Shown here: positions 3,509-30,199 of the stretch, in pieces
Numbering within the stretch: position 1 is the first letter of the stretch
Layout: each line of letters begins with the position of its first letter
From: Wolbachia endosymbiont of Onchocerca ochengi
Lineage (GTDB): Bacteria > Pseudomonadota > Alphaproteobacteria > Rickettsiales > Anaplasmataceae
Assembly (NCBI RefSeq): GCF_000306885.1
Contig: NC_018267.1
Coordinates: forward strand, 750,001-782,000
Length of the DNA stretch: 32,000 nt
Direction of reading: 5' to 3'
Program-made: the position numbers and the translations under genes
Notes under the pieces: generated by a model
What the model was told of the DNA's origin: nothing
The model's input: the letters and a program-made list of their open reading frames with translations, nothing else
The model's database searches: none

Positions 3509-3959
3509 AACTCTATTTAGCAGAATAGCAAAATAGAGAAAATAAGAAATCTAATAGTAAAAAAGGTTGATTCTTTTTTTAAGGAACGAAAGTGATAAAA
3601 GTTCAAGAAACTTGGCTTAGGATAAAAAATGAGGGGGAGGAGTAGTTTTTAAAGTATTGCTCTTAGCAGAGTAGTGAGATAGGTGTGTAAAAGCAAGTTA
3701 TGGGATTCTGTAGAAATTTAGAACAAAAATGAAGGTAAATAAAGGTTTAATGACATTGGGAAGTATTAAAAATATGCTGTATAGGATTAATCTTTAAAAA
3801 AAAATCTTCAATATGAGAAAAATAAGAATATTCTCACCTACCCTATTTTTCAAAACGACATCCTAGACTTCATTAATGTTAAATTAACACAAAAAGTTGA
3901 ATTCCCACAGCACCATTATAAATCCTAAAATCGCTTCTGTGATGAGCAGAGTATTGTTA

Positions 3960-4380
3960 ATATTTTTTGCAAGGTGGTTTTCACGAAAAACAGATAAATT
4001 GTGGAGCGCAGCTCTATGGGAATAAGAGCTTTGAAGACGTGCTTAACTTTACGCTGCTAAAGCTTATTCAAGACAGTCTGGTAATCACATTGGTCAAAAA
4101 GGTTTTTCTTTAATGAATATTATTTAAAGAACTTTTTATTTGTTTTTATTGAGTTGCCTAAATTTACAAAAAGTCGAGTAGAGTAATTAAAAAGCTTGAT
4201 GAAGAGGTAATTAGACAAGTTTTATTGATGAGAAGAATCAGTAACATATAAAGGTTAATGGAAGATAAGAATAGGTTAAAATAGTTGTGGCTAAAAACTT
4301 ACTTAAGGCCAGTGTCTCTGTAAATATTGTTACTAAAATTACTGGCGTTCAGTAGATGAAATAAAAAAATTGCATGAAAT
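3960..4380 (+). pseudogene. decayed C-terminal two-thirds of a PD-(D/E)XK (PDDEXK_2 / Rpn-like) putative transposase gene
   Basis: Plus-strand fragments occur in native order but in three different frames with stops. They are RRA*LYAAKAYSRQ (4035-4076), IELPKFTKS (4148-4174), VVAKNLLKASVSVNIVTKITGVQ* (4284-4355), then after a shift SVDEIKKLHE (4349-4378). From memory these match the family hallmarks R..YY.SKLY..Q, FIELPKF.K and the tail IAKNLL..G.s.e.I...TGLS.EEI..L. Confidence 0.5.
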
Positions 4381-4410
4381 GGGAATGTATTATTGATATA
4401 AACGGACAAA

Positions 4411-4430
4411 TTATATACTCCTTTTTCATA
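4411..4430. repeat. copy 1 of a 20-nt exact repeat TTATATACTCCTTTTTCATA (second copy at 15255..15274)
   Basis: Read directly from the sequence. Similarity extends upstream (GGACAAA vs GGACTAAA, with a 5-nt indel). The reverse complement reads TATGAAAAAGGAGTATATAA, i.e. an AAGGAG Shine-Dalgarno-like core or an ATG-AAA-AAG-GAG-TAT-ATA (MKKEYI) start. Confidence 0.8.
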
Positions 4431-4503
4431 AGAATAAAATTTGAAGAGAAACTATAGAAATGCTATAGATACTTACTTTTGTTAAGACAATCTTAGAGAA
4501 GGT

Positions 4504-5511
4504 ATGATGTTTAATTTTCCGAACACACGTTTAAGGCGTAGGCGCTCAAGTAAATGGATTCGCAATTTAACGAGTGAAAGCATTTTATCAGTAAATGATT
4601 TGATTTTCCCTCTTTTTGTTCATGACAAAAAAGAAACAACTGAATCAATTCCAGGTTTACCCGGCATGAAATGTTATTCAATAGATGAATTGGTTTCTGT
4701 AGCTCAAAAAGCTGAGGATTTGGGGATCAATGCTATTGCGGTTTTTCCTGTAGTTGACAGTAAATTAAAATCTAAAAATGCTGAGGAAGCATATAATCAA
4801 GACAATTTAATCTGCAAAGCAATTTATGCTGTAAAATTAAAGGTACCTGGTATTGGTATTATTGCAGACGTTGCGCTAGATCCATATACTACTCATGGTC
4901 ATGATGGCCTTTTAAAAGGGGATCTGATAGATGTGGAAAACGATGAAACTGTGTCAGTATTATGTAAGCAAGCGCTCGCTTTAGCAAAAGCAGGATGTAA
5001 TATAGTGGCTCCTTCTGATATGATGGATGGTAGAATAGGAAAAATAAGAAGGACATTGGATGATAATAACTTTCAAGATGTGTTGATATTGTCTTATGCA
5101 GTAAAATACTGTTCAAGTTTCTATGCACCATTTAGACAAATTGTTGGTTCATGTATACCATCAAATTTTATCGACAAAAGTAGTTATCAAATGGACTATA
5201 GAAATGCAAAAGAGACAATTTGTGAAATTGAAATGGATATAAACGAAGGTGCAGATCTTATTATGATAAAACCAGGTATGCCATACTTAGATATAATTAA
5301 AACAGCAAGTGATAAGTTTAATTTTCCGATTTTTGCTTATCAAGTAAGTGGTGAATATGCAATGATAAAAGCTGCAACAAATAACGGCTGGCTGAATTAT
5401 GATAAAGTAATTTATGAGTCTTTAGTTGGTTTTAAGCGTGCTGGTGCAAGCGCAATAATTACCTATGCAGCGCTTGATGTTGTAAAAATTTTAATGACAC
5501 AAAAGACCTAA
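4504..5511 (+). CDS. hemB: porphobilinogen synthase (delta-aminolevulinate dehydratase)
   Basis: 335-aa ORF with the typical ALAD N-terminus RLRRRRSSKWIRNLTSESILSVNDLIFPLFV. It also has the active-site region SDMMDGRIGKIR, SYAVKYCSSFYAPFR and the KPGMPYLDII Schiff-base lysine motif. Confidence 0.92.
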   Translation: MMFNFPNTRLRRRRSSKWIRNLTSESILSVNDLIFPLFVHDKKETTESIPGLPGMKCYSIDELVSVAQKAEDLGINAIAVFPVVDSKLKSKNAEEAYNQDNLICKAIYAVKLKVPGIGIIADVALDPYTTHGHDGLLKGDLIDVENDETVSVLCKQALALAKAGCNIVAPSDMMDGRIGKIRRTLDDNNFQDVLILSYAVKYCSSFYAPFRQIVGSCIPSNFIDKSSYQMDYRNAKETICEIEMDINEGADLIMIKPGMPYLDIIKTASDKFNFPIFAYQVSGEYAMIKAATNNGWLNYDKVIYESLVGFKRAGASAIITYAALDVVKILMTQKT

Positions 5512-6187
5512 TGTGAACTGTGTTTGCTGTAATAAATTAAGTAGACTTCTTATGTAGTTTTTGGCAGTACACTAGGTCTATATTTAAATAGAAACAAAAA
5601 ACTACTTGATAAACGTTCGTTTTAGCTTCTTTACCTCAAACTAAGGTTATTTAGTTATTTTCAATTTATGCAAGTTAAAGTAATAAGAATATTGCGTAGT
5701 TGATATATCTGATGTTTAATTCTTTACACTATATATGCTTAATATCTTTGTTAATTTCACTTAGATTTCTAGGTTTTTATTATATGAGTTAAAGTGCACT
5801 TATAAAACATTTAAGGCAGTGTAGAATGCTAGTTTTTTAAGCAGGTATTAATCAGGTTTTACCTTATCTTTTTTTCATTTGGTAAGCTTTTAAAGTGTTT
5901 GTAGCTAAAGCAATTTAAAAAGCTCCGTAAAAAAATGTCATTTCACAGTGTTCACCATTTAAATGACATTTATGAAGATTTTTTAAGTTATCAATAAACC
6001 TAAGTTTCGGTTCAGCTGAAGATTAGATATATCCGTTAGTTTAGGACATCAGAGCTGTACAGACTATAGCGTGTTGAAAACTAATTAAAGAACCTTAATT
6101 GTATGATTGACATTGGCTACAGAATTATGTAATAATAAAAGGGTTATCGTTTTTGATTAAAAAAGGCTTAAGTTGTTGCTTTTGTTT

Positions 6188-7135
6188 TTAGTTGTTAATT
6201 AATTTTTTCCATTTGGAAACCATTACATTGGCTTGCCTTAGTGCTTCAATAGAAGATAAGTCTTCTGTGCTGAGTGGTAGGCGGACAGTTTTGTGCTTTA
6301 TGATCCCAATATCATGCAAGAGTGCTTTAGTGGGTATTGGATTACTAGTAATACACAGTGTTTTACAGACTTGCTGCCAGATACTTGTTGAACTTTTTAC
6401 TTCATTTTCTATTACTTTAGTAGTTGCTTCCTTTTTAGATTCCAGCGCATAACGCTGGAATAACAGTAAGCATTGCTTAACATACTTATGTACTATACAT
6501 GGCCAAAGATTAGAAGCAACAGAAACTAAGCCATCTGCACCATAAGCGGCCATATCAAGTATCATATTATCATCACCACAAAAAACTTTAATATTTGGTG
6601 CAACTTTTTTGTACTTGATTAAAGTATCAATAGTTCCACTTGAATCTTTAATAGCCCAAAACTTTTCGTGGCTAGACAAATTACGTACAGTTTCTACATG
6701 AAGACTTACTCCTGCTCTTGATGGAATATTATAAAGCATAGCTGGTACATGTGCTTTTTCGAGTAGCTTTTCAAACCATAAAGTCTGCCCCATAATTCCA
6801 GGCTTTGTATAAATTGGGGTGGTTATTAAATAGCCGTAAATGGGCATGCCTTTGCAAAAATCAAGCCATTCAAGAGTTTGATATAAATTCACTCCTGGTA
6901 CACCAATTATGATTTTCGTACTTAATTTCAGTCCACATAGAAAGTTAACTAATGTACGCCTTTCATGATCAGTAAGTGACAAACTTTCACCAGTGCTACC
7001 TAATAACACCACACCGTTTTCGGCTTCAGCTTGCATTGTAAGTAAAAGCTGTAAACTGCTATAATCTATACTATCTCCTTTATCATTAAAAGGAGTAACA
7101 CAGGCAGTCCATAGAAATGGAGATAGTAATTTCAA
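6188..7135 (-). CDS. dapA: 4-hydroxy-tetrahydrodipicolinate synthase
   Basis: 315-aa ORF with VTPF, GSTGES, YNIPSRAG, AIKDSSG and SNPIPTKALL motifs of DapA. It has a TTG start 9 nt after the ssb stop. It is about 16 aa longer than E. coli DapA between the SNL and NPIP motifs (see finding). Confidence 0.85.
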   Translation of the reverse strand: MKLLSPFLWTACVTPFNDKGDSIDYSSLQLLLTMQAEAENGVVLLGSTGESLSLTDHERRTLVNFLCGLKLSTKIIIGVPGVNLYQTLEWLDFCKGMPIYGYLITTPIYTKPGIMGQTLWFEKLLEKAHVPAMLYNIPSRAGVSLHVETVRNLSSHEKFWAIKDSSGTIDTLIKYKKVAPNIKVFCGDDNMILDMAAYGADGLVSVASNLWPCIVHKYVKQCLLLFQRYALESKKEATTKVIENEVKSSTSIWQQVCKTLCITSNPIPTKALLHDIGIIKHKTVRLPLSTEDLSSIEALRQANVMVSKWKKLINN

Positions 7136-7144
7136 TTGAAGTTA

Positions 7145-7621
7145 TTAAAATGGTATTTCATCATCAATTAGCTCTTCCTTTATTTCACTGTCAAAAAAAT
7201 CTCTATGCTGATTTTTTTGTTCTACTTCACGTTGCTTATATTCGTTTGATTTACAATCAGAATTTGACCGTGAATCTAAAACTGCAAGAGTGCTGTTAAA
7301 ATTCTGCAACATTACCTCTGTGGTATATCTTTCACTCCCATTTTGGTCAGTATATTTTCTAGTTCTTAAAGAACCTTCAATGTAAACTTTACTACCTTTA
7401 CGTACGAGATCTTTGATGATTTTTACTAATCCTTCACTAAACACTACAATATTATGCCACTCCGTTTTTTCAGAGCGTATACCAGAAAACTTATCGGTCC
7501 AATTTTCAGATGTAGCTATTGAAAAACTTGCCATTTCTTTCCCACTCTGCATAGTTCTAATTTCAGGATCTTTTCCTAAATTACCAACTAATATAACTTT
7601 GTTTACTGTACCAGCGGACAT
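7145..7621 (-). CDS. ssb: single-stranded DNA-binding protein
   Basis: 158-aa ORF with an OB-fold N-terminus (NKVILVGNLGKDPEIR...TEWHNIVVF) and the acidic C-terminal tail DDEIPF typical of bacterial SSB. Confidence 0.92.
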   Translation of the reverse strand: MSAGTVNKVILVGNLGKDPEIRTMQSGKEMASFSIATSENWTDKFSGIRSEKTEWHNIVVFSEGLVKIIKDLVRKGSKVYIEGSLRTRKYTDQNGSERYTTEVMLQNFNSTLAVLDSRSNSDCKSNEYKQREVEQKNQHRDFFDSEIKEELIDDEIPF

Positions 7622-7690
7622 AATTGTACTTTAAAATAAACTCCCTATATTATCTTATGTTAAAATACAATTGTCAAATCTGATAGGAAA

Positions 7691-7764
7691 TGCGCTTGGA
7701 GGGATTCGAACCCTCTACCTTTGCCTCCGGAGGGCAACGCTCTCTCCAACTGAACTACAAGCGC
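7691..7764 (-). tRNA. tRNA-Arg (anticodon CCG)
   Basis: Reverse complement: GCGCTTG TA GTTC AGTTGGAGA GAGC G TTGCC CTCCGGA GGCAA AGGTA GAGGG TTCGAAT CCCTC CAAGCGC A. This is a full cloverleaf with a 7-bp acceptor stem, a GTTCGAAT T-loop and the anticodon loop CT-CCG-GA. No CCA is encoded. Confidence 0.9.
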
Positions 7765-8799
7765 ACATATATTAAATTACCTAGTAGATAAGCTAACTAA
7801 GTTAAATTTTAGATTCGGATAAATCACAAACATAGCATTTTCATGCTGTCAATACACATATCTTTTGAATTACTTGTTTGGTTTTCATCATGTTCTGATC
7901 TACAGTCCACATAAAAATTATGTAGTTTCCGGTTATTAAGTGACTTTTTAAGTCCTTAATGCCTGTAAACAGTTTCCCATTTTACTCACATTTTCAGTGT
8001 ATTAGAAAAAAATATAAAATTTAACTAAACTCACTATCTTATGATTGAAATCATCTAATATCATTTCTCTTGAAGAACATAAGTAAAACTTTTCCATTTT
8101 GCTGACTATCTTACTGACTAATTTCTCATTAAAAGAATACTTTTTATATTATAATATTGTGATAAAACATCAAAATCACTCTCTACTGCTTCCCTTATTA
8201 TCTCATTCTGATTTATATGACTCTATACATACCTTTATCTTTCGGATGCTTATAAAGAAACATTCCTTTGCAAGTAAATTTCGTATATATCAGTAAAATT
8301 ATCGATTTCTTGATTGTTAATTTTGAAAATACTTTCGAAATATTTTTTTTATCATCACTCCTGCTTAGAGTAATAATATAAACTATTTCGTCATTATCTT
8401 GTTTTTCTAATATACATACAAACCTCTACTATTTAATTATAGCATTCTATGCTAGATGAGGTCTTCATCATTAATAGTATATTACCGACAGGCATATTTT
8501 TTACAAGTTTCTATATTTTCTAGACTGCTTTTACAGTCGCAATACGCATTGACCTTGAAAAATAGTATAGTAAAAACAAAAGATAGCTCTTTTACCTTCA
8601 TTATTTCATCTACTTCATTATAGCGTGCCAGTTGAGAACTATATTAGCTCTCACTATTTTACCATATTACCGTCCAAAATCTAATTCATAGTTACAGTAT
8701 CAATATTCCTCTCTTTTTTCAGAAATAAGAGGTTTAATCATGACATAACCAGGCAAACTTAGACAGATTGTAAAGATAAAAAATATGTTTATTTCTAGT

Positions 8800-9560
8800 T
8801 GAACTAAAACTTAGGTAATTTCACTTTTTTATTGCTTTTGTGTGTTTACTTTTACTGTGTAATCTTACTTTCTCAGGTGTAGAAATCGACACTTCAGTTT
8901 CAAGCATGTAGTATCTTTTATGCAACTTACTGAGCTCAAAACTGAAATTTGCAATGTATCCACTGCTGTGTAAACTTGAAGAAAAAATTTTTCTACAAAT
9001 TTAGGCTTTTACTTAAAATAACTTCCTTTTTTTTGAACCTCAGTAATTTGTAAATTTATAGAATGTATCTCATCAATAGAATTTTGATTTTTACTATAGA
9101 CTTTCTTGTTATAAACAACAACATGGACTAAAAAACTATTAACCCAATGAGCAAATAACAAGCAAAATACAAACCAAATTGTAGCTCTTCCTTTTAATCA
9201 GAAAATGGTTGTTGCTTACGTAGTCTCTCTATTTGAACATCAATAAATATATTTTGCTCTTTAATGACAGGTAAACCGGAAATATCAATGTCATAGTATG
9301 AAAATTATTGCTTAATTTTTCTGCAGTTCTTGTCTTAATAAGAAACATCTTTATTAGGTTAAAAATTGAACTTTAAAGCTGTAGTAATATAATCTTTTGC
9401 CTCATTATAATTTTACTTAAATGAGCAAAATTCTGCACTACAACCTGGTACTTTCAATTTTTCTACATATCTAACTTATATAAGAAGAAGACATTCTACC
9501 TTAAACAAAATGCTTTTAATATTAATAAAATCATAAATTCATCTATTTTTTACATTATGG
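8800..9560 (-). pseudogene. decayed PD-(D/E)XK (PDDEXK_2 / Rpn-like) gene copy, middle of a head-to-tail series
   Basis: Minus-strand fragments: YYDIDISGLPVIKEQNIFIDVQIERLRKQQPFSD*KEEL (core 9197-9253), resembling the catalytic ..D+....G..fIvEmQ......F.DR block. Then HSSGYIANFSFELSKLHKR (8914-8955), resembling l.i.FIELpKF.K. The two lie about 103 codons apart, close to the native spacing. Many stops and frameshifts. Confidence 0.35.
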
Positions 9561-9639
9561 CTTTGGTTGTACTTTATTGATTAATTTTTAAGGTTTACTT
9601 TTTTACTGATAAGTTATCAGCAACATTAAGATTTAAATG

Positions 9640-10556
9640 TAAATTCAATAGACAAATGATGTTGATTACAATAAGAGTTAAAGTAAAGCATAGAAAGATT
9701 TAGGGAGAGTTTGAATAAAGATAATTCAACAGATAAAATTCTTTAGTTTCTTTTATGTTGAAAATAGCTGCTGTTTACTTTTAAAGCTGTGAAATAGAGT
9801 TATGTGATCTCACAGAGAAACTGTCTTTTTCACCCACATTTAATTCTCATTCTAGTAATTTGCTTAACTCATGTGAAGTTAATATTTTAATATTTTTCTT
9901 TAGAAATTTTTAATTAATAAAACTAGCCTTAATTTCTGGTAGATTATTATTAATAAACTACACTAAACGCATGGATGCCAACTTTATTCTCTTTAAAAAC
10001 CATCTGCCTGTGCTTTTAGTCTTTTAATTATAACAACTATGACTTTCCAATTATCATAGTTCTGAGATAGAAAACCTTTTTTACTGTATTACTTATTTTT
10101 ATAGAAAATATTAATACTTACTTAAAGTTAGAGGCAATATATTCAACAAGTGCTTTGCTTTTGATCAAATAAGGAGAAATAATACCAGTTCTGATTGATT
10201 TTGCTTGATCCTTAACTAAGAAAATTGAGCTTATATTATTTTGCAAGCAAAATGCTTCATCTTTGCTTTTCTGATAAATAGGAGCTGATTCTATTTATTC
10301 TTGAAATGGACTGTAGCAAGTAATTCTGATCTGTATGATTGAGTATTAGATGTAAAGGTACTTTCTTATTTGACATAAGGCATGAACTTAATTCAGATAC
10401 TGTTTTATTGTTTTTGTCCTAACAAAATGTCTTTTATTTAAAACATTATTCTTGAAATATAGTGACATTGTACTTCTTTCTTCAATAGAAATCACGAGCT
10501 TACTTTTAGATTTCGAATTAAACATATTAACAGAACTTGTATTCATCTATAACTAA
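9640..10556 (-). pseudogene. decayed PD-(D/E)XK (PDDEXK_2 / Rpn-like) gene copy, upstream-most of the series
   Basis: Minus-strand fragments: an open 52-codon head from ATG 10556 (MNTSSVNMFNSKSKSKLVISIEERSTMSLYFKNNVLNK...). Then KDEAFCLQNNISSIFLVKDQAKS (10202-10252 core), aligning to fIvEMQN......yFKDRA. Then FY*LKISKEKY (about 9889-9920), aligning to FIELpKF.Ke. Motif spacings of about 105 and 103 codons are near native. Confidence 0.4.
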
Positions 10557-11820
10557 AAAGCAATTTATTGGAATTCATTAAACATTGTAGGAAGTATTGT
10601 TATAAATTTCCACAGCTATGCTATTCATAGTATGATTTTTTGATGAATTTAGTGCAGTATTAGCATACTTATATAATGTAAACAAGAAAATTTATTTTAC
10701 AATTTTAATTGACATGGAACATTAACCTAGTTACTATTAGCATAGTATTAATATGTAAGGTAAAATTGGTTCTTTTACAATCTCACCCTCGTTAAAGCAT
10801 TTAATTATTACTTTTTTGCTATGTGCATTTGTTCTCACAAGAGGGGTATTTATTTATCCTATGAGTCTAGCAATTTGTAGTACTACTATAGCACCAACGC
10901 TTCATGTGGTAATTACCTCTATTTTCGTAGTTGTTGTTGCATTGAGCTCAGTAATATATCTTTCTAAGACGACTTTTTATGCAATAAATAATAAAAAGCA
11001 GAGGTCATATGTAATCTTCTTGAAAAAAGATTAAATGGTAATGGCGTTAGCACACAAATGCCAGCAGTAACAGCTATATCTTCGTCTTTATCTGCTTTAT
11101 GTTTAAAAGAGTCTACTATAACCAGTGTACCAATCTCTACTCCATTGTTATTTTCTACAGTTACATTACTTCAGTCTTCTCAGTTGGCACACTGCTTACA
11201 CCTTTCTCTTTCCTTCTTTTGCCACAAGTAAAAATGCGAGTGTAACGCTTATATCATCCTTCTTATTTACTAAGTCAAAGCGTGAATTTACCACCACCGT
11301 CACCTCTTCTCCTAAGCGGAAAACCTCTTAGTAGCAATGTACTAAAAAATTCCTCTATTACTAAACTCAAAAGCCACAATAAAAGTTTTTTTCAGAAGTA
11401 GTTGAAAGAAAGGTTGCAGAAGATAAAGGAAAAGATATAGCAAAAGTAAGCAGATATGAAATCCTATGAAAGAATTGGGATGTGAAAACTAAAAAGGTGA
11501 TAATAGCAATACCAAAAACGGAGGATACAAAATCAGAGTAACTAATAATTCTGTTTGTTATGTAATTTTAGAAGGTATCCATGAGAGTTGGTAATTAACG
11601 TAAAAAAAGAAGGAAATAGTAACATTCTTCTTATTTAGATAATATTAGCATATTCGATCCTCATAATTAACTAGCACAACAATTGCTAATAAACCTCTTG
11701 TAGTAGAAAGTAGTAACGTGATTCCAGTGGGGGAATAGTGAATCGAAAAAGCTTATTTTCTTTTTAAAGGGTAATCAAAAAACACCTGAGTGCGTTAATA
11801 AATAAAAGAGATTATAAGGT

Positions 11821-11852
11821 AAAGGGAAAGTACTACACTTTCCTTTTTTTTT
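11821..11852. terminator. bidirectional intrinsic terminator (A-tract / 7-bp stem / T9)
   Basis: AAAG GGAAAGT ACTAC ACTTTCC TTTTTTTTT. The perfect stem pairs 11825-11831 with 11837-11843, with a 5-nt loop and a 9-T run on the + strand (11844-11852). The T-run overlaps the TAA stop of the minus-strand ABC gene. On the minus strand the hairpin directly follows that stop and is followed by CTTTACCTT. Confidence 0.5.
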
Positions 11853-13620: not shown

Positions 13621-13768
13621 CGCATATATAGTTTTTATTGCAAAAATATTAACAGAAGTTGGTTAACTTTAAGTTAATAAAATATTAATATACATAAATA
13701 AAAAATATAAACAACAGTAATCAAAAGAGATAGATTTTTTTTATTGCCTAATCTAGAGCTGAAGACTT

Positions 13769-14776: not shown

Positions 14777-15254
14777 TTGTGTTTGGTTACTGTATTACTA
14801 AACTATACTTTGAAATGCCTTAAAAGTTAACTGCATTCTGATAAATTAATCATCATTTTCAAATATAGGGCTAATTTTTTATTTCCAGGAAAAAAAAGTT
14901 TACTAGTTCAGCTGCTTTGCACTTTAGCTACATCTTTAACGTTAATTTGGTACTATATTTATTTACTTCATTACCTATAATATTTACTCTTAGATAATTT
15001 ATGTGCACGTGATTTTGCAGTTTGATAGGCTTATATTCCCTTTAATATGGCTTAATCAGCAATTATTCGTGCAGGAGAACATCTACTACTTGTTTCAGGT
15101 TTTGCTCGATCCTTAATAAACTTTATTGAGAAAACTCTTGCTCCAGGTTAAGTTAAACTTGTTTTCAACCATATATAAAAGTTTATATACTGTAGTATGG
15201 ATTTATTTTTCTCAGAACAAGAATATATCTATCTACACTAAGGACTAAATTGTC

Positions 15255-15274
15255 TTATATACTCCTTTTTCATA
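15255..15274. repeat. copy 2 of the 20-nt exact repeat TTATATACTCCTTTTTCATA (first copy at 4411..4430)
   Basis: Read directly from the sequence. It lies in the tsaD-hlyD spacer. Confidence 0.8.
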
Positions 15275-15632
15275 TTCGCTAGTCTTTTTCAAGATACACT
15301 TCAAGCGAGAGTCTATTTGGCCTTATTAAAGGAGATAAGGTGAGGCTTAATGTGCTTTAAATTTCTTAAATTAGTAAAGATACTCAGTATATTGCACTGC
15401 ATTCTCACTATTTTCTACTCAAGTTACCTATTTTATTACTAAATTAAATATTTTTCACACTTAGGAATTGATCCATTATAAAGAGTTTTCAGAAGAGTTA
15501 TTATAGATGTAGTTGAAATACTAAACATAATTTGATTCTATGAACATAGACCTATAAGAAGGCTATTATCAAAATAGCTAAGCGGTACTTAAATATTATT
15601 ACGAAAAAAGTCTATTTACTCTAACGAGTTAT

Positions 15633-19872: not shown

Positions 19873-19943
19873 AAGAATTCTGTATTTGCATAATTTTTAT
19901 GGGTTTTACATCTTAACACTTAAATTATATGAATTTATAAACG

Positions 19944-20601
19944 TTAGCTTAACTTTTTGACGTAGTTAACAAGTTTGTCAATAGTAGTTAACTTAATCTT
20001 ATGTTGTTCAGCAAATTCAAGCAACTGAGGTAGACGCATCATAGAGCCATCATCATTCACTAGCTCACACCCTACAGCTGCATGATTAAGGTCAACTAGC
20101 TTTGCTATCTCAACACTTGCTTCAGTATGACCATTGCATGCTAAAACTCCTCTATTGTTTGCAATAATAGGAAAAACATGACCAGGAGTGATAATGTCAT
20201 CCTTAGTACTCTTTTCATCAATGGCAATAAGTATTGTATGCGTTCTATCATTAGCAGAAACACCTGTTGTAATATCATGACGTGCATCAATTGATGTAGT
20301 AAATGCAGTGTGATAAGTAAGCTTTTTATCTACATTACTTCTTTTCATAAACTCAAGACCTAGTCTATTTATTCATATGAAGCTTTGTCATAGCTAAAAA
20401 TACGATGCCAGTTCCATATCTAATCATAAAGACTACGTGTTTTGGCTTTAGCTTTTCAGCTAAGATAATTAAATCACCTTCATTTTCCCTATTTTCGTTA
20501 TCAACTAAAATAAACAATTTACCAGACTAAGCATCTTCAAATATACCTTCAACAGGAGAAATACAGGATAGGTTAATCGATGCATAAGTGGCCTGTACCA
20601 T
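19944..20601 (-). pseudogene. ribB: 3,4-dihydroxy-2-butanone-4-phosphate synthase, disrupted (2 in-frame TAG stops + 1 frameshift)
   Basis: The track ORF 19944..20348 (…TTGVSANDR…PGHVFPI…GHTEASVEIAKL…CELVNDDGSMMRL…) is only the C-terminal two-thirds of RibB. The missing N-terminus lies immediately upstream: ATG 20601 then MVQATYASINLSCISPVEGIFEDA-TAG(20529..20527)-SGKLFILVDNENRENEGDLIILAEKLKPKHVVFMIRYGTGIVFLAMTKLHMNK-TAG(20367..20365). The frame then changes (…INRLGLEF-MKRSNVD). Total span is 658 nt (3n+1). Confidence 0.8.
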
Positions 20602-20604
20602 AGT

Positions 20605-21099
20605 TTATTTAAATTCAATCTTAACTATTTTATATAATTTCTCTCCACTTGGTACTATTACTTCCACACATTCGCCAATTTTTTTGCCGATTAAAGCACT
20701 ACCCAAAGGTGAACTAGTAGATATTAACTGTTTTGAAACGTCAGCTTCGTACTCACCTACAATTTTATAAATATATTCTACTTCACTACCATCATCATTT
20801 AACATGCTTAATGTTACGGTTGCACCAAACATTACCGAATCGCCAGACAAGCTTTTCACTTCTATTACTTCTGCATGCGAAAGCTTGCTTTCTAGCTCCA
20901 TTATACGACCTTCGATGAAACCTAATCTTTCTCGTGCAATGTGATATTCTGCACTCTCAGATAAATCACCTTGATCACGGGCATCAGAAATGGCCTGTAT
21001 AATGGAAGGTTTCTCTTCTTTTAATTTCTCAAGCTCAGCTTGCATGCATCCAAAACCTTCTTTTGTTATAGGAAACTTCTTAACGACGGATGAAGCCAT
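20605..21099 (-). CDS. greA: transcription elongation factor GreA
   Basis: ORF 20605..21108 with a coiled-coil N-terminus (…LEKLKEEKPSIIQAISDARDQGDLSESAEYHIARE…) and a C-terminal FKBP-like domain (ISTSSPLGSALIGKKIGECVEV). The track start is a GTG abutting the atpA stop. ATG at 21099 (MASSVVKK) gives 164 aa. Confidence 0.9.
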   Translation of the reverse strand: MASSVVKKFPITKEGFGCMQAELEKLKEEKPSIIQAISDARDQGDLSESAEYHIARERLGFIEGRIMELESKLSHAEVIEVKSLSGDSVMFGATVTLSMLNDDGSEVEYIYKIVGEYEADVSKQLISTSSPLGSALIGKKIGECVEVIVPSGEKLYKIVKIEFK

Positions 21100-21108
21100 A
21101 ATCACCAC

Positions 21109-22650
21109 CTACACGCAATTAAATTGAGTAATAAAATTACTCACGATACTTAAAATATCGTTTTTTATACCATTATTCATGTTGTTTGACAACTTTTTTA
21201 AAATTTCAGGGTATGCATTATGGAAATAATTGATAAGATCATATTCAAATTTATTGATGTTGTTTATTTGTATCTTACTTAACTGATCATACAAATTAGA
21301 GAAGATATACATCAGTATTAACTGTTCTTCTATTGGCATAGGTGAGTGCTGTTTTTGCTTTAACAGTTCAATAAGATATCTACCCTTGTTTAAGGACGAT
21401 TGAACACTGGCATCAAGGTCAGAACTAAATTTTGCAAAGTCTTCTAATTCTCTATATTGAGCTAAACTTAACTTTATAGAGCCAGCAACTTTTTTCACAG
21501 ACTTTAATTGTGCGGCAGAACCAATCCGCGAAACTGATAAACCTATATTTACTGCAGGACGAAATCCTTTGTGAAATAATTCAGACTCAAGGAAAATCTG
21601 TCCATCAGTAATTGAAATTACATTAGTTGGGACATACGCAGATACATCACCGGCTTGAGTTTCAATAATTGGCAAAGCAGTTAAAGACCCTTGTCCTTTT
21701 CCATCAGACATCTTAGCAGCTCTCTCAAGCAAACGAGAATGTACATAGAATATATCTCCAGGATAAGCTTCGCGGCCAGGAGGACGTCTTAGCAGTAAGG
21801 ACATTTGCCTATATGCTACAGCATGTTTAGACAAATCATCGTACACGACTAAGCAATGCATTCCATTATTACGAAAAAATTCTCCAATAGTGCAACCAGC
21901 ATAAGGTGCTAAAAATTGCATAGGTGCACATTCAGATGCACTAGCAACAACTACAGTTGTATACTTTAATGCTCCACTTTCTTTTAGCTTATTTACCACT
22001 TTTGCTACTACTGAAATTTTTTGCCCGATAGCAACATAAACACAGTAAACTTTTTGATCTTCATTTACTTCATCATTAATCTTCCTCTGATTTATGATAG
22101 TATCAAGTGCAATAGTAGTTTTTCCGGTTTGCCTATCACCAATAATTAACTCACGCTGTCCTCTGCCTATCGGAATTAATAAATCTATAATCTTAATTCC
22201 AGTCTGTAGAGGTTCATGTACAGATTTGCGGTCAATAATGCCTGGCGCCTTAGATTCTATGTCCATTCTACTCTTGGCTCTAATTTCTCCACCTTTGTCT
22301 ATAGGATAGCCCAGTGCGTTTACAACCCTTCCAAGGGATTCGTGTCCTACAGGTATCTGTACAACGTCACCACTGCATCTTACAATATCTCCTTCTTTTA
22401 CATCACGGTCATTACCAAGCACCACTATTCCAGCTATATCATGGTCTAAATCAAGAACTATTCCTTCTACACCACTTGCAAAAAATACCTTTTCACCGAA
22501 CTTTGCTTCTTCAAGCCCATAAACTAGTGCAATACCATCAGTTACTGAAGTTACTTCACCTATATTTTCTCGTTTTATAGGGTTATCAAATGCCTCAATT
22601 TTTTTCCGTATTATGTTTACTACCTCAGAAGCATTTATACTATTTTTCAT
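21109..22650 (-). CDS. atpA: F0F1 ATP synthase subunit alpha
   Basis: 513-aa ORF with Walker A GDRQTGKT, the conserved [23 protein letters not shown], and [13 protein letters not shown]. Confidence 0.95.
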
Positions 22651-23206
22651 TACAGTTTCCTATTTTTAATATTTCCATTTTGCTCAAACTAACCAGTCTA
22701 TCTAAGTAACTTTTCAGCGAAGCATCGATTAAATTAAAACCGTACTTTACTATAAAACCACCTAGTATGGAAGGGTCAACCACATTATCTACTTTTACTA
22801 TCTTACCAAGAAAGCTTAAAGATTCAGTAATTATTTTTATATCGGTTTTCTTTAAAGCCTTTGCTGATTTTATAGTAACTTCTAATTCATTTTCATTTTC
22901 TCTTATAAGATTCAAAAATTTTTCTAATATAAGGAGTAATAAACTAGAGCGCCTGTTTGCAAATGTCACCATAATAAATTTCACCAAGTTTCTACTCAAA
23001 TCTTCATTTATACAAAATATTACTTCTTTCTTATGTGAGAGAGAGATCATAGGACTGGACAGATACATAAAAACGTCACGTTGATTTTTTAAAAAAGTCA
23101 ATAGAAACTTTACTTCTTTTCTTATAGTACTTGACTTACTTTTTGAGACGTAAAACAGCGCCTTAGCATAAGATAAAATTAAATTATTGTATTGGGTCCT
23201 TTTCAC
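22640..23206 (-). CDS. atpH: F0F1 ATP synthase subunit delta (OSCP)
   Basis: 188-aa ORF with a GTG start, overlapping atpA by 11 nt. OSCP-like features: [11 protein letters not shown]… at the N-terminus and …[29 protein letters not shown] at the C-terminus. Confidence 0.8.
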
Positions 23207-24394
23207 ATTAAATTACCTAATATATAGAGTTAAACATCTTTAAGCCTAACCAATAAGGGTCTAGCCTAGAAAGGCTTAGATCTCAGAGAGTATAGCAACT
23301 AAAACTCATAATTATTGACAAAATTCATTACAAAACAGCTGTTAACTGTGAAAGAAAAACGTGTCAGAAAATGAGAACTAGTAGTTAAAGTAATTATAAT
23401 AGATTTCTTAGAGAAAGGAAATACTTTCTATTTATCTTTGCCTTTTATTAGGCAGGAAGTATGTTATCTAAACAGCTGGTATATAGCTGTACAAGCATTT
23501 TGATTTAAATCTATTCTAAGAGAATATTATTCAAGCAACTTAAATAGCGGACACTATGATCTAAAAACATCTTGATGGTTTTACTTTCTCTTTAAATTTA
23601 AGGCTAACTTTTCCATCAATACCTGCTTATCCCTTTTCTCTTTGCTTTAAATTTTTGAATAAAGAACATAGATCAGGAGAGAAGGTTATACAGAAATATA
23701 TATTTAATACTTATGAAAAATACGCTCCTTCTTTGTAAGGGTTATCTTTATGTCCTATCTCCATAATAATTACTTGCGTTCTGATTGATTTACTTTGTAA
23801 ACTATACAAATATAGTTACTTATTTAGCCTTTTGCATTTTTTTACTCTATAATATATAGGAGCGAGTTCACCAAACTTCTCTATCAAAATAAGGCGCGTT
23901 CTTTTATGGCTTTTAAAACTCTTAACTTTATTTTTCTTAGGAGAGTAAGTAAATTCCTTTTGGTAAAATTCCTTTAAAAAATTAATCTTATTCTGCTCTA
24001 ATCCTGCTTAACACAACTTTAAACATCACGCTCATCAGAAATTTTAGATACCAAAAAACTCTTTATTTCAAGCTAACTACTTCTTTGAATAGCTCTTTTC
24101 TACTTGTTCTTGAATTATGCTACTTCATAAAGCTAGATAATTCAGTAGGATACTTTGAAGTTTTTCTATCAAGAACTATATTGATTCCTGAATCTATAAA
24201 AGTTTTACTGACGTTCACTATTATAGCTATAGTATAACATTTCTTAAATTTTTGATAAAGTAGTTCATATGTTGCTAACACTTAATTAAGAAGAATTCTT
24301 GCTTATTTAAAGAAAGAATTTCAATTGTACTCGAATTGACTTAACTTATAATAAATGACAAAAAATTGCATGCTATATAACAATCGCAAAGGAA

Positions 24395-25093
24395 ATGGAT
24401 AAATCACAATTAATTAAGGAGGTATTTGATTCCGTAGCAGGTCACTACGACATCATGAATGATATAATGAGCTTTGGGATACATAGGCTATGGAAGAACA
24501 AGATGATAAATATTACGCATTTTACAAAAGACTCTAAGGTTTTGGACATTGCTGGAGGAACCGGCGATATAGCAATAAGAATAGCAAGGAGAGAACCAAG
24601 CATTCAAGTTACAGTATGCGATATAAATCAAAACATGCTAAGCAGGGGAATTGATAAAGCTATAAATTCAAACCAACTTAATTTCAATTGGGTGTGCGCA
24701 AATGCAGAAAATTTGCCATTTGAAGACTCTACATTTGATTATTGTACAATAGCTTTCGGTATTCGAAACGTTTCTGATCGCAAAAAGGCTTTAAGTGAGG
24801 CGTATAGAGTATTGAAACTAAATGGGAAATTCATCTGCTTAGAGTTTGCTCCTATGCATTACCAAAATGAGGTATTTACTAAATTCTATAACTTATATTC
24901 ATTTAAAGTAATTCCCAAAATCGGCAGCATAGTTGCTAAAGATAAAAACTCTTATAAATATTTAGTAAGAAGCATCAGAGAGTTTCCAACTCAGGCTGAG
25001 TTTCAAATGGAAATTGAAGAGATAGGCTTTCATAATGTTGAATTTCATGATATGAGCTATGGAATAGTAACATTACATATTGGAACAAAATGA
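24395..25093 (+). CDS. ubiE: demethylmenaquinone / 2-methoxy-6-polyprenyl-1,4-benzoquinol methyltransferase
   Basis: 232-aa ORF: [24 protein letters not shown], the SAM motif [16 protein letters not shown] and [10 protein letters not shown] are all UbiE/MenG hallmarks. AAAGGA lies upstream of the ATG. Confidence 0.9.
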
Positions 25094-26012
25094 ACATCAA
25101 ACCCTAGTATAGAGTACTAAACATTATTTCGTTATTTTAGTAAGTTTCTTCTTCACTCAACAAGTTTTACAATTACACAGCGTCTTTTTTCTTTGTCACA
25201 AGAATTATTTTATATAATATTATATTACTTATGTAATTCTATTGTTGATTACTTTAGTAACATTAGTAACATTCTCTTTTATCAATATAAAAAATATACT
25301 TAATCTTTTATTTATAAGTAAGTTAATATTTTTTATTTTAATGGTGGCTGCAATAATACTTAGCATGGGAAAAAAGGTGCAAACGATCGATTTTCGCATT
25401 ATTACTTTTGCAGCCTAATTTAGTATATCCATGCTTTCAACGTATTCTTTTATTGGTCAAATGTTCATAGTGAATACCGCTTCTGTACTTTCCGTGTATA
25501 GCAGAAATAGTTATGCTGGAATCACGACAGTTACTTGTTCTTTACACATAAACAAAAAATTTGCAATTTTCTTTTTTTTGTGCAGCACGACACTTTTCAA
25601 GTCATGAGATTATTAAAAATATTCAAAGTAGGTTAACTAATTGGAGATGTACTAAATAAAAAAGTAGCACAAAAACCTTTAGTGTTGTTTAGTACCATTA
25701 CCGCTCTTTTGCTTTATGTTTTACGTATATAGAGTAAATTATTTAACTTATTGGCGATTTTTGATATTTCAATTCAATTTATTACACAATTTATAAATAA
25801 ACATAGGAGTGACGTTGAGCATTTCTCACACTATCGGTATAACTCTATCATTGCTTAGTTATGCGGTTCCTCTCCTTTATCTTCTAGTATTGCCATTGAC
25901 ATAATATTGCCTTTTAAATTCAAATTAGAAACTATTAGTTGAGTAACAGTTAGTAACTCAATTGCTTAGGTGATATAAAAATGAGTAGTTAACCAAAAAG
26001 ATCACAGAGACA

Positions 26013-26690
26013 TTAGATTATTCCTTCTTGGAGTTGCTTTACCTCAACTTTAGGGAATCTTTAGTTATTTGAGAAATAGCTTCACTAGGAGTACTAGTTG
26101 AATAGATTTTTTGCACTTCGATTTTTTTCTTTTTTATCTTTATCTCCTTCTTTTTTAGTAGCATCATCAAGTTCTTGAGCAAGAGTAAATTCTATTTTCA
26201 TCATAAATCCGCTTCACTTTGTGTTCGTAGGCAATAAATTCTTTTTTGACTAATTGAGTCTATTTGCTCTTTACATGATCTTTTAATCATTAAACAACTT
26301 CTTAATGATCTTTCCTCCTAATTTTTCTTTACTTGTTTCGTTAGCGTACCCAAGAAAATACATCCACTTCTCAGCTGTATTTGAGAGTTGATTTTTCTTC
26401 GTTTTCAAAAATTTTGGTAATTATAAATACAAAATAAAAATCCTTCTAATCATGTTCATTGATATTCTTTTATCTTGGATAGTATGTCTTGATTTGTACT
26501 CAGATTTATCAGGAAATAGCATGCCTATTCTGTACAAATATTCAACCTTCTTTATATTTGAGTCCTCTATGAAGCACTATAAACTAACTTATCACCATTT
26601 TAGTAAGGTTGTTCTGATCTCGCAAACTATATCTTTTTCCTCTTTTTCCTGAAACTAAAATCCATATACTTAATTTTAGAAACTTTGAAA
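26013..26690 (-). pseudogene. decayed PD-(D/E)XK (PDDEXK_2 / Rpn-like) putative transposase gene, 5' end missing (abuts the msbA-like start)
   Basis: Minus-strand fragments in native order. GKRYSLRDQNNLTKMVIS* (about 26600-26650) resembles the EMQ block. LPKFLKTKKNQLSNTAEKWMYFLGYANETSKEKLGGKIIKKLFND* (26420 downwards) matches ELPKF.K....L....EKW.YFL. KKEFIAYEHKVKRIYDENRI (shifted frame) matches LS.EE..AYE. TLAQELDDATKKEGDKDKKEKNRSAKNLFN*YS**SYFSNN*RFPKVEVKQLQEG (to about 26020) matches the tail IAKNLL…EEIKQL. Confidence 0.6.
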
Positions 26691-26694
26691 TAAA

Positions 26695-28401
26695 ATGCGA
26701 TCCGGTATTAGGCAATTATTTTACTATATAAAACCTAATCTACATTATTTTATTATAGCTTTTATTGCAGTTCTATCTTCCTCTTTAATGATTCTCCTTT
26801 TTGGTAGAGGTTTGAGTAGCATAATTGACTCTAGTGCAGGGCATAATTTTACTATTAAATTAGTAGTGACTATATTTATAGTTTTAGCCATCTCTCTTGC
26901 TGCATTTGTTAAACTGTATTTTATGGGAATTGGTAGTGAGAAAGTTATTGCGAGAATCAGATATGACTTATATAGCAATATTACTGATTTACAACCAAGT
27001 TTTTTTGAGAATACTGGCGTACAAGATGTTATCTCAGCGTTAATTACTGATACCTCTGTGCTACAATCAATAATAAATAGCAGCTTACTCACCATATTGC
27101 GAAATTTTGTAATACTGATTGGCAGTATTACCATGTTATTATATACAAATCTACACTTAACCACGTATACAGCCGCAATAGTACCAATATTATTGATCAT
27201 TATGACATCACTTGGAAAAAAGGTGCGCAGTTATGCACGTTTTGCTCAGAGTAAACTGAGTGAACTTGCATCATTTAGTGAGGAAAATTTCAGATCTATA
27301 GCAACTATTAAATCATTCGTGTTGGAAGGAAATGAGAAAGCACGTTTTAAGGAGTACCTAAACTCAGTATCGAAATCATACGTAAGGTTAGTGCTCTTAC
27401 GTGCTATTTTAGTAACTTTGATTATCTCATGTGTAATAGGTTCGTTAGTTGTTTTGCTCTTTTTTGGTATCAAGGAGGTCTTAAGCAGTAATATGACTAT
27501 TGGAGAGCTTTCCTCATTTGTGTTCTATTCAGCGCTTGCAGCAGGAGCTGTAAATAATTTGAGTGATAATATCAGTGATTTACAACGAGGTCTTGGGGTG
27601 ATAGAGCGTTTACTTGAACTTAAAGATATGAAAAGCTCTATAGTGGATGCTAGCAACCCTATAAAAATTCATAGTGTTCAAAAAGAAATTGCATTTAATG
27701 ATGTAACGTTTTTTTATGAATCTCAGCTTGATAGACCAGCATTAAACAATGTGTCCTTTTCTATAAAGGTAGGTCAATCTGTCTCAATTGTTGGACCATC
27801 TGGTAGTGGTAAAAGTACTATTTTAAAACTTCTGCTTCGCTTTCATGATCCAAACAAAGGCAGCATTACCATTGATGGGCACAACATTAAGTTAATCGCA
27901 TTAAGTAACCTTAGATTGTTATTTGGTTTAGTACCACAAGATCATACGATATTTTCCTGCTCAATAATGGAAAATATACTATACGGTAAACCAGGTGCTA
28001 AGTATGAGGAAGTGAGACAAGCAGCTATCAGTGCTTATGCGATGGAGTTTATTGATAAGTTACCTAATAAATTCGATACATTTGTAGGGAAAAGAGGATT
28101 AAAGCTCTCTGAAGGGCAAAAACAACGTATTATAATAGCAAGAGCTATACTCAAAAATCCTCAGATTTTAATATTGGATGAAGCAACTTCCGCTCTTGAC
28201 TATAAAAGTGAGAACCTTGTGCAAAAAGCACTGAATGAATTAATGCAAAACAGAACAACGATTATGATTACACACAGACTGTCATCTATACTCAAAACCG
28301 ATAAGATCGTAGTAATTAATCATGGAGAAATAGAAGAAGTAGGAACTCACGATTCCCTTATAAATAAGAATGGACTGTATGCAAAATTAGCGAAAATATA
28401 G
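26695..28401 (+). CDS. ABC exporter, fused permease/ATPase (MsbA/ABCB-like)
   Basis: 568-aa ORF with a 6-TM N-terminal domain, Walker A GPSGSGKST, Q-loop VPQD, signature LSEGQKQR, Walker B ILILDEATSALD and an H-loop ITHRL. Confidence 0.88.
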   Translation: MRSGIRQLFYYIKPNLHYFIIAFIAVLSSSLMILLFGRGLSSIIDSSAGHNFTIKLVVTIFIVLAISLAAFVKLYFMGIGSEKVIARIRYDLYSNITDLQPSFFENTGVQDVISALITDTSVLQSIINSSLLTILRNFVILIGSITMLLYTNLHLTTYTAAIVPILLIIMTSLGKKVRSYARFAQSKLSELASFSEENFRSIATIKSFVLEGNEKARFKEYLNSVSKSYVRLVLLRAILVTLIISCVIGSLVVLLFFGIKEVLSSNMTIGELSSFVFYSALAAGAVNNLSDNISDLQRGLGVIERLLELKDMKSSIVDASNPIKIHSVQKEIAFNDVTFFYESQLDRPALNNVSFSIKVGQSVSIVGPSGSGKSTILKLLLRFHDPNKGSITIDGHNIKLIALSNLRLLFGLVPQDHTIFSCSIMENILYGKPGAKYEEVRQAAISAYAMEFIDKLPNKFDTFVGKRGLKLSEGQKQRIIIARAILKNPQILILDEATSALDYKSENLVQKALNELMQNRTTIMITHRLSSILKTDKIVVINHGEIEEVGTHDSLINKNGLYAKLAKI

Positions 28402-28471
28402 CGGATATAGTTTACTGAAATATAATATAAATTTAAAAAATTTAAATCATACTGTTACAAGTCAGATTGAC

Positions 28472-28487
28472 ACCCTAAATTTAGGGT
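28472..28487. repeat. perfect 16-bp palindrome ACCCTAAATTTAGGGT, 70 nt after the msbA-like stop (possible terminator hairpin or protein-binding site)
   Basis: Read directly from the sequence. As RNA it gives a 6-bp stem (ACCCTA/TAGGGT) with an AATT loop. It is followed by TAAATTATTTAATTCTT, which is only moderately T-rich. Confidence 0.3.
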
Positions 28488-28741
28488 TAAATTATTTAAT
28501 TCTTAAATATTTTAACTTACAATAAACCAACATTCCTTTTTAAGGATTACTATGATTTACGCTCATGTTTTTTACCATGCCAACAATATGTAATTGCCTA
28601 TTATCAGCACTAATTTTATCAATGTACACTTTTTATATGTCTACATATATACCTTATGTTGTTAATTTGTATTATAGTCACTTTAACTCATGTTATTACC
28701 TGCTTAACGTAAATCAAAATCATCGTAATGCACTAGCTCTA

Positions 28742-29068
28742 TTTATTAGAAAATTATTTAAAATAATTTATATATGTACATAGTATTGCTTTAAGCGTAG
28801 CCTTATGTCTTTCTGAGAGCATATGGGCATTATTTAAACAATACTACGCACTTTACACTTTGCTTAATAAAGAAAGTTCATAAGCAAATAGCTTACTACT
28901 TATTACCTACATAGCAGTTTTATACTATCAATAACACAACTAATTTAACTATATCTATAGCTCTCTTTTGAAATTTTATCATCTTTTGATCGTAGTAAAA
29001 CCTCTGAACTCTAATAATTTTGTGTAATAGCTGCTTACCCATACACAGCATAATAAATCTGCCAGCCA
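28742..29068 (-). pseudogene. decayed core of a PD-(D/E)XK (PDDEXK_2 / Rpn-like) gene copy
   Basis: Minus-strand fragments in native order. WLADLLCCVWVSSYYTKLLEFRGFTTIKR (29068-28982) resembles R.lYYWSKLYt.QL.eGe.Yt.LK. QKRAIDIVKLVVLLIV (28970-28923) resembles k.vIsI.iLdF.lf. HMLSERHKATLKAILCTYINYFK*FSNK (28825-28742) resembles H..F.L.E....L.d.l.I.FIELpKF.K. Confidence 0.4.
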
Positions 29069-30199
29069 TAGAAGTAAGTTTGTTAAGCATAATTATTTTA
29101 ATTGCATTACTATTGAAGTTGTATTTTAAAATGCATTATAGATTCAGGATTCAAGATATGCTAATTTTAATCTCTATATTATAAAATAACTGATCAATTT
29201 TACCTTATAATAATCTAATAGTTATTTTAAAAAGGATCTTTATAGCTTGTTATTCTCAATTTCATAACTACACAATGTCTATTTTCATAATATAGATGAA
29301 CCTTATTTCTCAGATTGTAAACCCGTGATACATATCTGATAAATTTGATAACAGGATCTATTAAAATAAGACCTTCATAACTGAATAAAAATTTTCCTAT
29401 AGGCAATGATTACTGTATTTCTAAGTTTCTCGAGCGTCGCTATATTTCATCTTTTAAGTATTATTACAATTTATGTTCTAATAATGTAGCATATTGTCAT
29501 ATTCATAAATCTAGTACATAGTGATGCTGAAATATACTAGCATATTGGACTGGAAGTTAAAAAAACAGACCTAGAGCAACAGAAATTGCAGAAACTAAAA
29601 TAGTACAAGATCATGCAGAGGCTGTTTCTACTGCTGGAATAGTTCAAAGATAATAGAACTTTATAAGCTAATTTATAGCGAAGGTGATGAAAAATATAAA
29701 AGATGTGTAGATGATCGAGAGTAGTGATTTAATATATTAAATATAATATAACATACATCACGTGCCTGTGTCGTTGGCTTATAATCTTGATAGCTTATTT
29801 GATTGTGTGACTTTTCTTTCCTTTTTTACTATACTATTAATCTGAAATAATGTCAAGTTTTATATTTTTGTAGTGGGCTGGGAAAGTAAAATGCAACTCC
29901 TGTATATGAATATCCATGTTACAGTGGTTACTACAACTGCATGTTATTATACCTATGATTCTAGAAATACAGTAGTTAATGCTTTATGGTTGGAAAGGTA
30001 GGTTACTTATAGTAAAAATTAGAGGTCATATAAAACTCTTTGATTTATATAAGCCTGTACTAATATATATGACCAAGGTTACGATGTTTTTAATTGTTAT
30101 TATAGGTACAAAAGGCTGTTTAAACTCAATAAACTTGTGTAAAAGAGAGGGTAAAGAGGGTTAACTTTATAACCTACAGGATTTATAACTTTTTGATTG

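Follow-up and report, generated by a model that had tools for sequence, protein, structure and literature searches.

Large non-coding fractions made up of degraded, diverse genes, shaped by AT-biased erosion and slow deletion, are known from Rickettsia prowazekii and Mycobacterium leprae, and in Ehrlichia ruminantium the low coding density is ascribed mainly to changes in intergenic length driven by tandem repeats. The genome of the Wolbachia endosymbiont of Onchocerca ochengi (wOo) has been called 'highly degraded', having a lower G+C content and a lower gene density than any other Wolbachia; 88 genes, including 29 hypothetical ones, are given as uniquely lost or turned into pseudogenes, the riboflavin genes are given as pseudogenised, only six insertion sequence (IS) copies are counted, the prophage-related genes found in insect strains are described as missing from the lineage, and pseudogenes are annotated genome-wide (Darby et al., 2012, Genome Res, PMC3514676). 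The symbiont of Onchocerca volvulus (wOv) shares 99% average nucleotide identity with wOo (PMC8116671). In E. coli, Rpn proteins are toxin-antitoxin anti-phage nucleases (bioRxiv 10.1101/2023.05.02.539157). Here we analyze a 32,000-nucleotide stretch of the wOo genome (the window), whose eight long spacers free of open reading frames (ORFs), S0 to S7, had been explained from the letters alone (the sequence-only reading) by mass decay of one multicopy family of Rpn/PDDEXK_2 putative transposases.

We found that the long spacers are very probably (probability about 0.9) the neutral wreckage of many unrelated dispensable genes in a supergroup C Wolbachia of Onchocerca, with homology to intact genes, synteny, gene disruption and faster spacer divergence all observed. 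From S0 to S7 the spacers measure 877, 995, 676, 4229, 856, 1188, 1601 and 1795 bp by ORF listing and tRNA scan (S3 has 4085 bp past its tRNA-Arg gene) and sum to 12,217 bp, or 38.2% of the window, bearing out the sizes and the ORF-free share of about 40% given by the sequence-only reading. From 80 genomes we collected the syntenic loci that surround ssb, and from several Wolbachia those that surround the orthologue of the ABC transporter (loci carry L numbers below), and compared the window with their ORFs by blastx and tblastn and with their DNA by blastn. The relics match at E-values of 1e-9 to 1e-44, carry many stops and frame changes and keep a conserved gene order, and relatives hold intact syntenic counterparts: L012 (genes of 488, 208 and 275 aa, and WD_0702), L089 and L101 (ftsW), L087 and L089 (Rpn), L008 and L009 (a 215-aa gene) and L088 (ribB). 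Relics of protein genes other than Rpn account for ~4,860 bp of spacer DNA (40%), a dispersed repeat for ~600 bp (5%), tRNA for 76 bp (<1%) and an unassigned remainder for ~46%. Rpn relics cover only ~985 of the 12,217 bp (8%), which does not support one family as the explanation of the low coding density. The companion claim, that the spacers are decayed genes and not generic intergenic expansion, holds in part: at least six of the eight spacers contain relics, although in two of these they are copies of a repeat and not of genes.

At each of three evolutionary depths, divergence was greater in the spacers overall than in the genes, by a factor of 2.4-3.3: 0.76% versus 0.23% in comparison with wOv, 8.2% versus 3.3% with L007, and ~28% versus 11% with the Wolbachia of Dirofilaria immitis (wDimm, L008). 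Spacer GC content is 28.1%, compared to 34.5% in the rest of the window. The stops, frameshifts, partial deletions and synteny, together with fast-evolving AT-rich spacers, form the signature of neutral erosion of dispensable genes with slow deletion. On this model, dispensable genes would have gained stop codons, frameshifts and partial deletions, and AT-biased mutation would erode the dead genes faster than deletion clears them. The wreckage derives from two Rpn/PD-(D/E)XK paralogues, FtsW/RodA, the WD_0702 metalloprotease, an operon of three genes upstream of ssb, a membrane protein rich in proline, ribB and copies of a dispersed non-coding repeat. Its cause may be relaxed selection in an obligate mutualist lifestyle, and anti-phage Rpn genes may have become dispensable in a lineage without the prophage-related genes of insect strains and with so few IS copies.

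For the Rpn family, we built a local hidden Markov model (HMM) from 120 intact Wolbachia Rpn proteins and scanned the window in six frames, with 200 dinucleotide-preserving shuffles of each spacer and each claimed locus as the null, and ran tblastn on the window with 122 intact Rpn queries. The HMM matched two tracts, one in S1 and one in S6 (Table 1), and nowhere else in the window; their alignments contain the motifs FIELPKF, EKW.YF, KEFIAYE and VAKNLLKA...ITG. S1 scored 22.7 bits for the best domain (73.3 summed) and S6 scored 89.9 bits (118.4 summed), each above 200 of 200 shuffles (highest shuffle score in the two regions, 4.9), and the best tblastn E-values were 2e-10 for S1 and 5.6e-25 for S6. 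In contrast, the HMM score was 0 for S0, S2, S3, S4, S5 and S7, and 0-0.8, within the shuffle range, for the five weaker claimed loci (7.9-8.5, 8.8-9.56, 9.64-10.56, 23.2-24.1 and 28.7-29.1 kb). The best tblastn E-values with intact Rpn queries were 7.5 in S3, 6.7 in S5 and 2.1 in S7, poorer than a chance match inside greA (E 0.001). The ordered motif series described by the sequence-only reading is thus real at two of the seven claimed loci: the two it rated good, at 3.96-4.38 kb (+) and 26.0-26.7 kb (-), exceed all shuffles, whereas the five it rated moderate or weak give shuffle-level HMM scores and tblastn E-values of 2.1-7.5. The comparison with shuffled spacers that it had proposed sets S1 and S6 above the null and leaves the other six spacers at null level, and its question of whether best matches would fall in unrelated families was answered at three claimed loci by three other genes.

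In a decay simulation, the HMM detected relics up to ~0.4 neutral substitutions per site and missed them at ≥0.6; the test excludes relics as young as those detected, and not arbitrarily old ones. Pfam scans of whole spacer frames (stops as X, three frames joined) returned nothing in S0, S2, S3 (minus strand), S5 or S7, but the positive controls, S1 (plus) and S6 (minus), likewise returned no PF12784 match, and we do not use these uninformative scans as evidence.

The S1 relic spans HMM positions 11-300 in four fragments and two reading frames, with at least eight in-frame stops. Stops and a frame change interrupt positions 11-108, which are kept, and IVERS stands in place of the E-x-Q block. 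The tblastn match to the L089 Rpn protein includes 6+2 stops within its high-scoring segment pairs (HSPs), the stitched protein reaches E 8.5e-23 in blastp against Wolbachia Rpn, and the DNA is 68% identical to the intact L089 Rpn gene over 344 nt, with the L089/L087 type nearest. The stitched relic matched neither curated PF12784 nor TIGR01784, and we assign it to the family because of its homology to intact Wolbachia Rpn members, not through curated profiles. The symbiont wDimm has a relic at the same iscS-hemB site (L008 13362-13882), and none of the seven loci found by a HemB metagenome scan has Rpn adjoining hemB.

The S6 relic spans HMM positions 127-256 (85 bits) in two frames with at least four stops. 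Its N-terminal nuclease core (~126 positions) has been deleted, and the promoter and gene of the ABC transporter occupy that space. Once stitched, it matches a Wolbachia 'Rpn family recombination-promoting nuclease/putative transposase' (P0001; E 1.3e-25, 45% identity) and PF12784 (36.0 bits versus a gathering score of 27.4, E 7.9e-9), and falls below the match threshold for TIGR01784. Over 397 nt its DNA shares 72.5% identity with the Rpn gene of wMel, the nearest type, compared to only 61% for the intact Rpn genes that stand at the same site upstream of the ABC gene in L087 (wCfe, 8908-9801) and L089 (group A, 8320-9183); L102 6001-6912 was also among the Rpn loci compared. L090, L099, L100 and L101 have no Rpn gene at this site, and a ~450-bp dispersed repeat often adjoins it. 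The site upstream of the ABC gene may be a preferred one in Wolbachia, at which Rpn genes repeatedly insert or undergo conversion, although we consider this unlikely; if true, repeated occupation of the site would be rare evidence of movement or targeted recombination by a 'putative transposase' family in Wolbachia.

Neither relic contains an ORF of ≥80 aa. They belong to different paralogue lineages (L089 type versus wMel type), and no DNA similarity was found between them within the window. Both occur at the same sites in wDimm, indicating that both genes died before the Onchocerca and Dirofilaria symbionts split and have been inherited vertically as relics. No mobility features, such as terminal inverted repeats, target-site duplications or identical dispersed copies in the window, were seen for the Rpn relics, and the proposal of a selfish, transposase-like family finds no backing at either. 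Intact Rpn partners match TIGR01784 (E 5e-51 and 2.5e-43) and PF12784 (E 1e-48), and PADLOC returned no matches for Rpn. In arthropod Wolbachia the family is multicopy and adjoins IS fragments, ankyrin genes and Wmk-like helix-turn-helix (HTH) genes; several of the top 120 Rpn matches share one contig, for example four from a 1,654,827-bp genome. The C-terminal HTH of the Rpn protein P0002 (residues 201-287) and of stitched S1 (149-179) matches the NCBIfam model for the WO male-killing protein Wmk (E 1e-7 and 4e-4, respectively). The same HTH module is found again at the ends of genes that lie nearby in L104 (4420-5034 and 7509-7667), and thus appears to be a shared, shuffled DNA-binding module.

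Three of the weaker claimed loci lie in S3, between ssb and an ABC-transporter gene, and there the sequence-only reading was right that minus-strand coding relics are present and wrong about their family. The gene order in the arthropod Wolbachia L012 is tsaD-ABC-488-208-275-ssb-dapA, the numbers being protein lengths in residues, and S3 holds relics of all three intervening genes. The 488-aa relic comprises three HSPs with E-values between 5e-39 and 9e-23, which cover residues 3-484 and contain 20 stops and 2 frame changes, and its counterpart is intact and syntenic in L012-L019; the 208-aa relic has blastx matches at 6 arthropod-Wolbachia loci; and the 275-aa gene stands directly upstream of ssb in L012-L018. 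We therefore rejected all three loci as Rpn relics: 9.64-10.56 kb is the 488-aa relic, 8.8-9.56 kb is in part the 488-aa relic and for the rest the 208-aa relic, and 7.9-8.5 kb is the 275-aa relic. The proposal that spacer lengths are multiples of about 0.9 kb is likewise not meaningful, since the 4.2-kb S3 holds relics of genes for 275, 208, 488 and ~215 aa. The last of these is the proline-rich protein, whose gene is intact in wDimm (L008 6437-7126) and in the Wolbachia of Cruorifilaria (wCtub, L009 6905-7540), with proteins 60% identical over 217 aa. No intact ORF for the 488-, 208- or 275-aa genes is present in the ABC-ssb interval of wDimm or wCtub.

The three-gene operon (membrane or secreted proteins; L012 6950-9846) is kept in arthropod and supergroup F Wolbachia, and its proteins matched no Pfam, NCBIfam or PADLOC family. 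Besides two transmembrane segments, the 215-aa protein has a charged helix at its C-terminus and a PPPPPPLPP tract, and its gene is absent from the syntenic interval in L012, the arthropod strain examined.

S6 also holds a relic of the SEDS-family gene ftsW/rodA, which reached blastx E 9.8e-28 to L089 6795-7946 and has tblastn HSPs in three frames with 15 stops; the intact orthologue matches TIGR02614 (ftsW) at E 7.6e-89. The intact gene orders are ubiE-ftsW-Rpn-ABC-argS in L089, Rpn-ABC in L087 and ubiE-ftsW-ABC in L101. A spacer of wLs (supergroup D; L091 9148-9868), in which no ftsW is called, aligns to the FtsW relic with 61% DNA identity. In S4, the WD_0702 relic consists of three overlapping HSPs with up to 10 stops in one, and its orthologue matches NF049849 at E 6.6e-110. 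In the ribB relic, tblastn with wDimm RibB finds residues 2-79 in one frame and 77-218 in another, along with one stop, and the Pfam match is limited to profile positions 73-191; ribB is intact in wDimm (217 aa) and at the syntenic position in L088. The split of ribB (3,4-dihydroxy-2-butanone-4-phosphate synthase) agrees with the published loss of riboflavin synthesis in wOo/wOv.

Table 1. Coordinates of relics, repeat copies and other features of the window, in order of position.
Feature	Position	Strand	Length	Location	Evidence
Decayed copy of ~450-bp dispersed non-coding repeat	1712..2099			S0	blastn
Rpn/PDDEXK_2 pseudogene	3782..4370	+		S1, between iscS and hemB	HMM and tblastn
Second decayed repeat copy	5600..5819			S2	blastn to L089, L012 and L018 copies
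tRNA-Arg	7690-7765		76 bp	S3	only Rfam match at gathering threshold in whole window
Pseudogene of 275-aa secreted/hypothetical protein	7780..8613	-		S3	tblastn E 2e-28, residues 1-275, 23 stops
Pseudogene of 208-aa hypothetical protein	8616..9209	-		S3	tblastn E 4e-23, 59% identity, residues 78-151
Pseudogene of 488-aa hypothetical protein	9230..10546	-		S3	tblastn to L012 6950-8413
Frameshifted gene of ~215-aa two-transmembrane proline-rich protein	10762..11416	+		S3	tblastn E 2.5e-44, three frames, L008 6437-7126
WD_0702-family HEXXH putative metalloprotease pseudogene	14995..15439	-		S4	blastx/tblastn E 1.5e-9, L012 2630-3367
Split ribB (DHBP synthase) pseudogene	19947..20601	-		outside listed spacers	tblastn, Pfam
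Spacer S5, no ancestor assigned	23207..24394		1188 bp	between divergent atpH and ubiE	
FtsW/RodA (SEDS family) pseudogene	25051..25918	+		left half of S6, directly after ubiE	blastx, tblastn
Rpn/PDDEXK_2 pseudogene	26127..26522	-		S6, directly upstream of and divergent from ABC transporter gene	HMM and tblastn
Weak relic, C-terminus of 272-aa hypothetical gene	29899..30089	+		S7	blastx E 3e-6, L099 9107-9931

The repeat copy in S0 is 64.5% identical over 417 nt to L089 15000-15500 by blastn, and the copy in S2 is 70% identical to that in S0 (self-blastn, 5619-5749 versus 1679-1816). The repeat occurs in 2-3 copies per 20-kb locus in L010, L011, L012, L018 and L089. Further sites are L089 9424-9856 and 17378-17656, L012 1898-2353 and 19161-19624, and L099 5416-5874; the intergenic repeat carries an internal sub-repeat of ~150 bp, and we presume that it may relate to known Wolbachia variable-number tandem repeat (VNTR) or palindromic elements.

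S7 aligns over nearly its whole length (28404-30149) to L099 7701-9977, from Ca. Wolbachia massiliensis, at 63-73% identity, and in that genome the 272-aa gene lies between the ABC gene and argS. The stretch at 28.7-29.1 kb was rejected as an Rpn relic, its homologous DNA in L099 and L101 being without Rpn, and the genes of 223 to 281 aa that separate ABC from argS in L087, L090 and L101 gave no significant protein match to S7 as a whole, which matched only genes of L099, and these weakly. Inverted repeats in S7 were only AT-rich chance pairs. S5 was rejected both as an Rpn relic (HMM 0) and as a relic of the major facilitator superfamily (MFS) transporter that adjoins ubiE in supergroups B and D, for which tblastn and HMM scores (HMM 0) were at shuffle level.

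Several observations weigh against neutral gene wreckage as the whole account. The ~46% of spacer DNA without an assigned ancestor comprises S5 in full, S7 in large part and portions of S0, S1, S2 and S4; past ~0.5 neutral substitutions per site the Rpn HMM no longer sees relics, so that relics of great age, whatever their family, may lie there. That the Rpn genes were lost for want of phage pressure is something we infer. Some spacers may carry promoters or small RNAs, and the 70 bp lying immediately upstream of the ABC gene (26623-26693) are 83-87% identical to arthropod strains, the sole spacer stretch to stand out as conserved. This conservation also favours the reading that the unassigned DNA (S5, most of S7 and the flanks of S0 and S2) is DNA with a non-coding function that selection maintains, for instance promoters, small RNAs or structural repeats, as do the wide occurrence of the S0 and S2 repeat in intergenic regions of many Wolbachia and a search by Darby et al. 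for proteins from expressed intergenic regions in wOo (PMC3514676). However, the spacers taken together diverge faster than genes by the factor given above; S5, which aligns only to the equivalent wDimm spacer, and S7 share an identity of only 63-70% with wDimm, no different from proven pseudogene regions; and Rfam gave no match at E ≤ 1 in 1297-6187 (S0-S2) and only the tRNA at gathering threshold in the whole window. We thus regard selected function as an improbable explanation of the unassigned DNA. Least probable, and already refuted for this window, is the origin of most oversized spacers in mass decay of a single multicopy Rpn/PDDEXK_2 family: two genuine Rpn relics in different spacers and the multicopy, accessory nature of the family in arthropod Wolbachia speak for it, but six of the eight spacers and all five weaker loci are at shuffle level, three claimed loci belong to other genes at E-values of 1e-19 to 1e-39, the DNA homologous to 28.7-29.1 kb in L099 and L101 is without Rpn, and the family makes up so little of the spacer DNA.

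The genes around these spacers are ordinary. ORFs of ≥115 aa, with shadow ORFs inside longer ones excluded, correspond to housekeeping genes: iscS, hemB, dapA, ssb, two ABC transporters, tsaD, a gene for an HlyD-type protein, fabG, virB2, an M48/TPR protease gene, greA, atpA, atpH, ubiE and argS. The window DNA is 99.9% identical to the CACRCK/CACRCJ assemblies L001, L003 and L004 and 99.46% identical to HG810405 (wOv), and its ABC protein is 99% identical to that of the Wolbachia endosymbiont of O. volvulus, while an exact copy of its HemB protein is encoded by HG810405.1 and by several CACR assemblies; the next-nearest genomes are wDimm and wCtub. The source is a supergroup C filarial Wolbachia of the wOv/wOo lineage, an obligate mutualist with a shrinking genome, and not the Ehrlichia-type genome presumed by the sequence-only reading, since Ehrlichia ssb is only 62-67% identical to that of the window.

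Neutral decay of many unrelated genes is also not a new explanation for this lineage. Low gene density through gene decay has been known since 2012, when Darby et al. reported extensive pseudogenisation of this genome and a gene density below that of every other member of the genus (PMC3514676), and the novelty claimed for decay as the cause does not stand. Only the map of relics in this window is new, along with the refutation of an origin in one family. Reading motifs by hopping between frames located real pseudogene tracts on the right strand, and named the wrong family for most. The map lists the losses: an ftsW/rodA paralogue of the SEDS family, ribB, a metalloprotease, an uncharacterised operon of three genes and two nucleases with a putative role in defence. 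It could aid pseudogene curation in wOv and wOo, drug-target genomes for river blindness; beyond such housekeeping its significance is slight.

Of the described systems, the decay reported for wOo/wOv by Darby et al. (2012) is the same phenomenon in the same genome lineage as the window, and the relics of two Rpn paralogues, ftsW/rodA, WD_0702 and the three-gene operon are not itemised in the portions of that report drawn on here. With E. coli RpnA-E (YhgA-like), the Rpn relics share homology to PF12784/TIGR01784 members, the FIELPKF and EKW.YF motifs and a C-terminal HTH. The E. coli proteins are chromosomal nucleases encoded by toxin-antitoxin defence genes and not demonstrated transposases; unlike them, both window copies are dead and the S6 copy is without its nuclease core. 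Ehrlichia ruminantium is alike as an AT-rich member of the Anaplasmataceae, with a coding density of ~60-65%, but differs in that tandem repeats in the window are negligible, amounting to four tiny arrays. Rickettsia prowazekii and Mycobacterium leprae are different lineages, and the window resembles both in its pseudogene-rich non-coding DNA.

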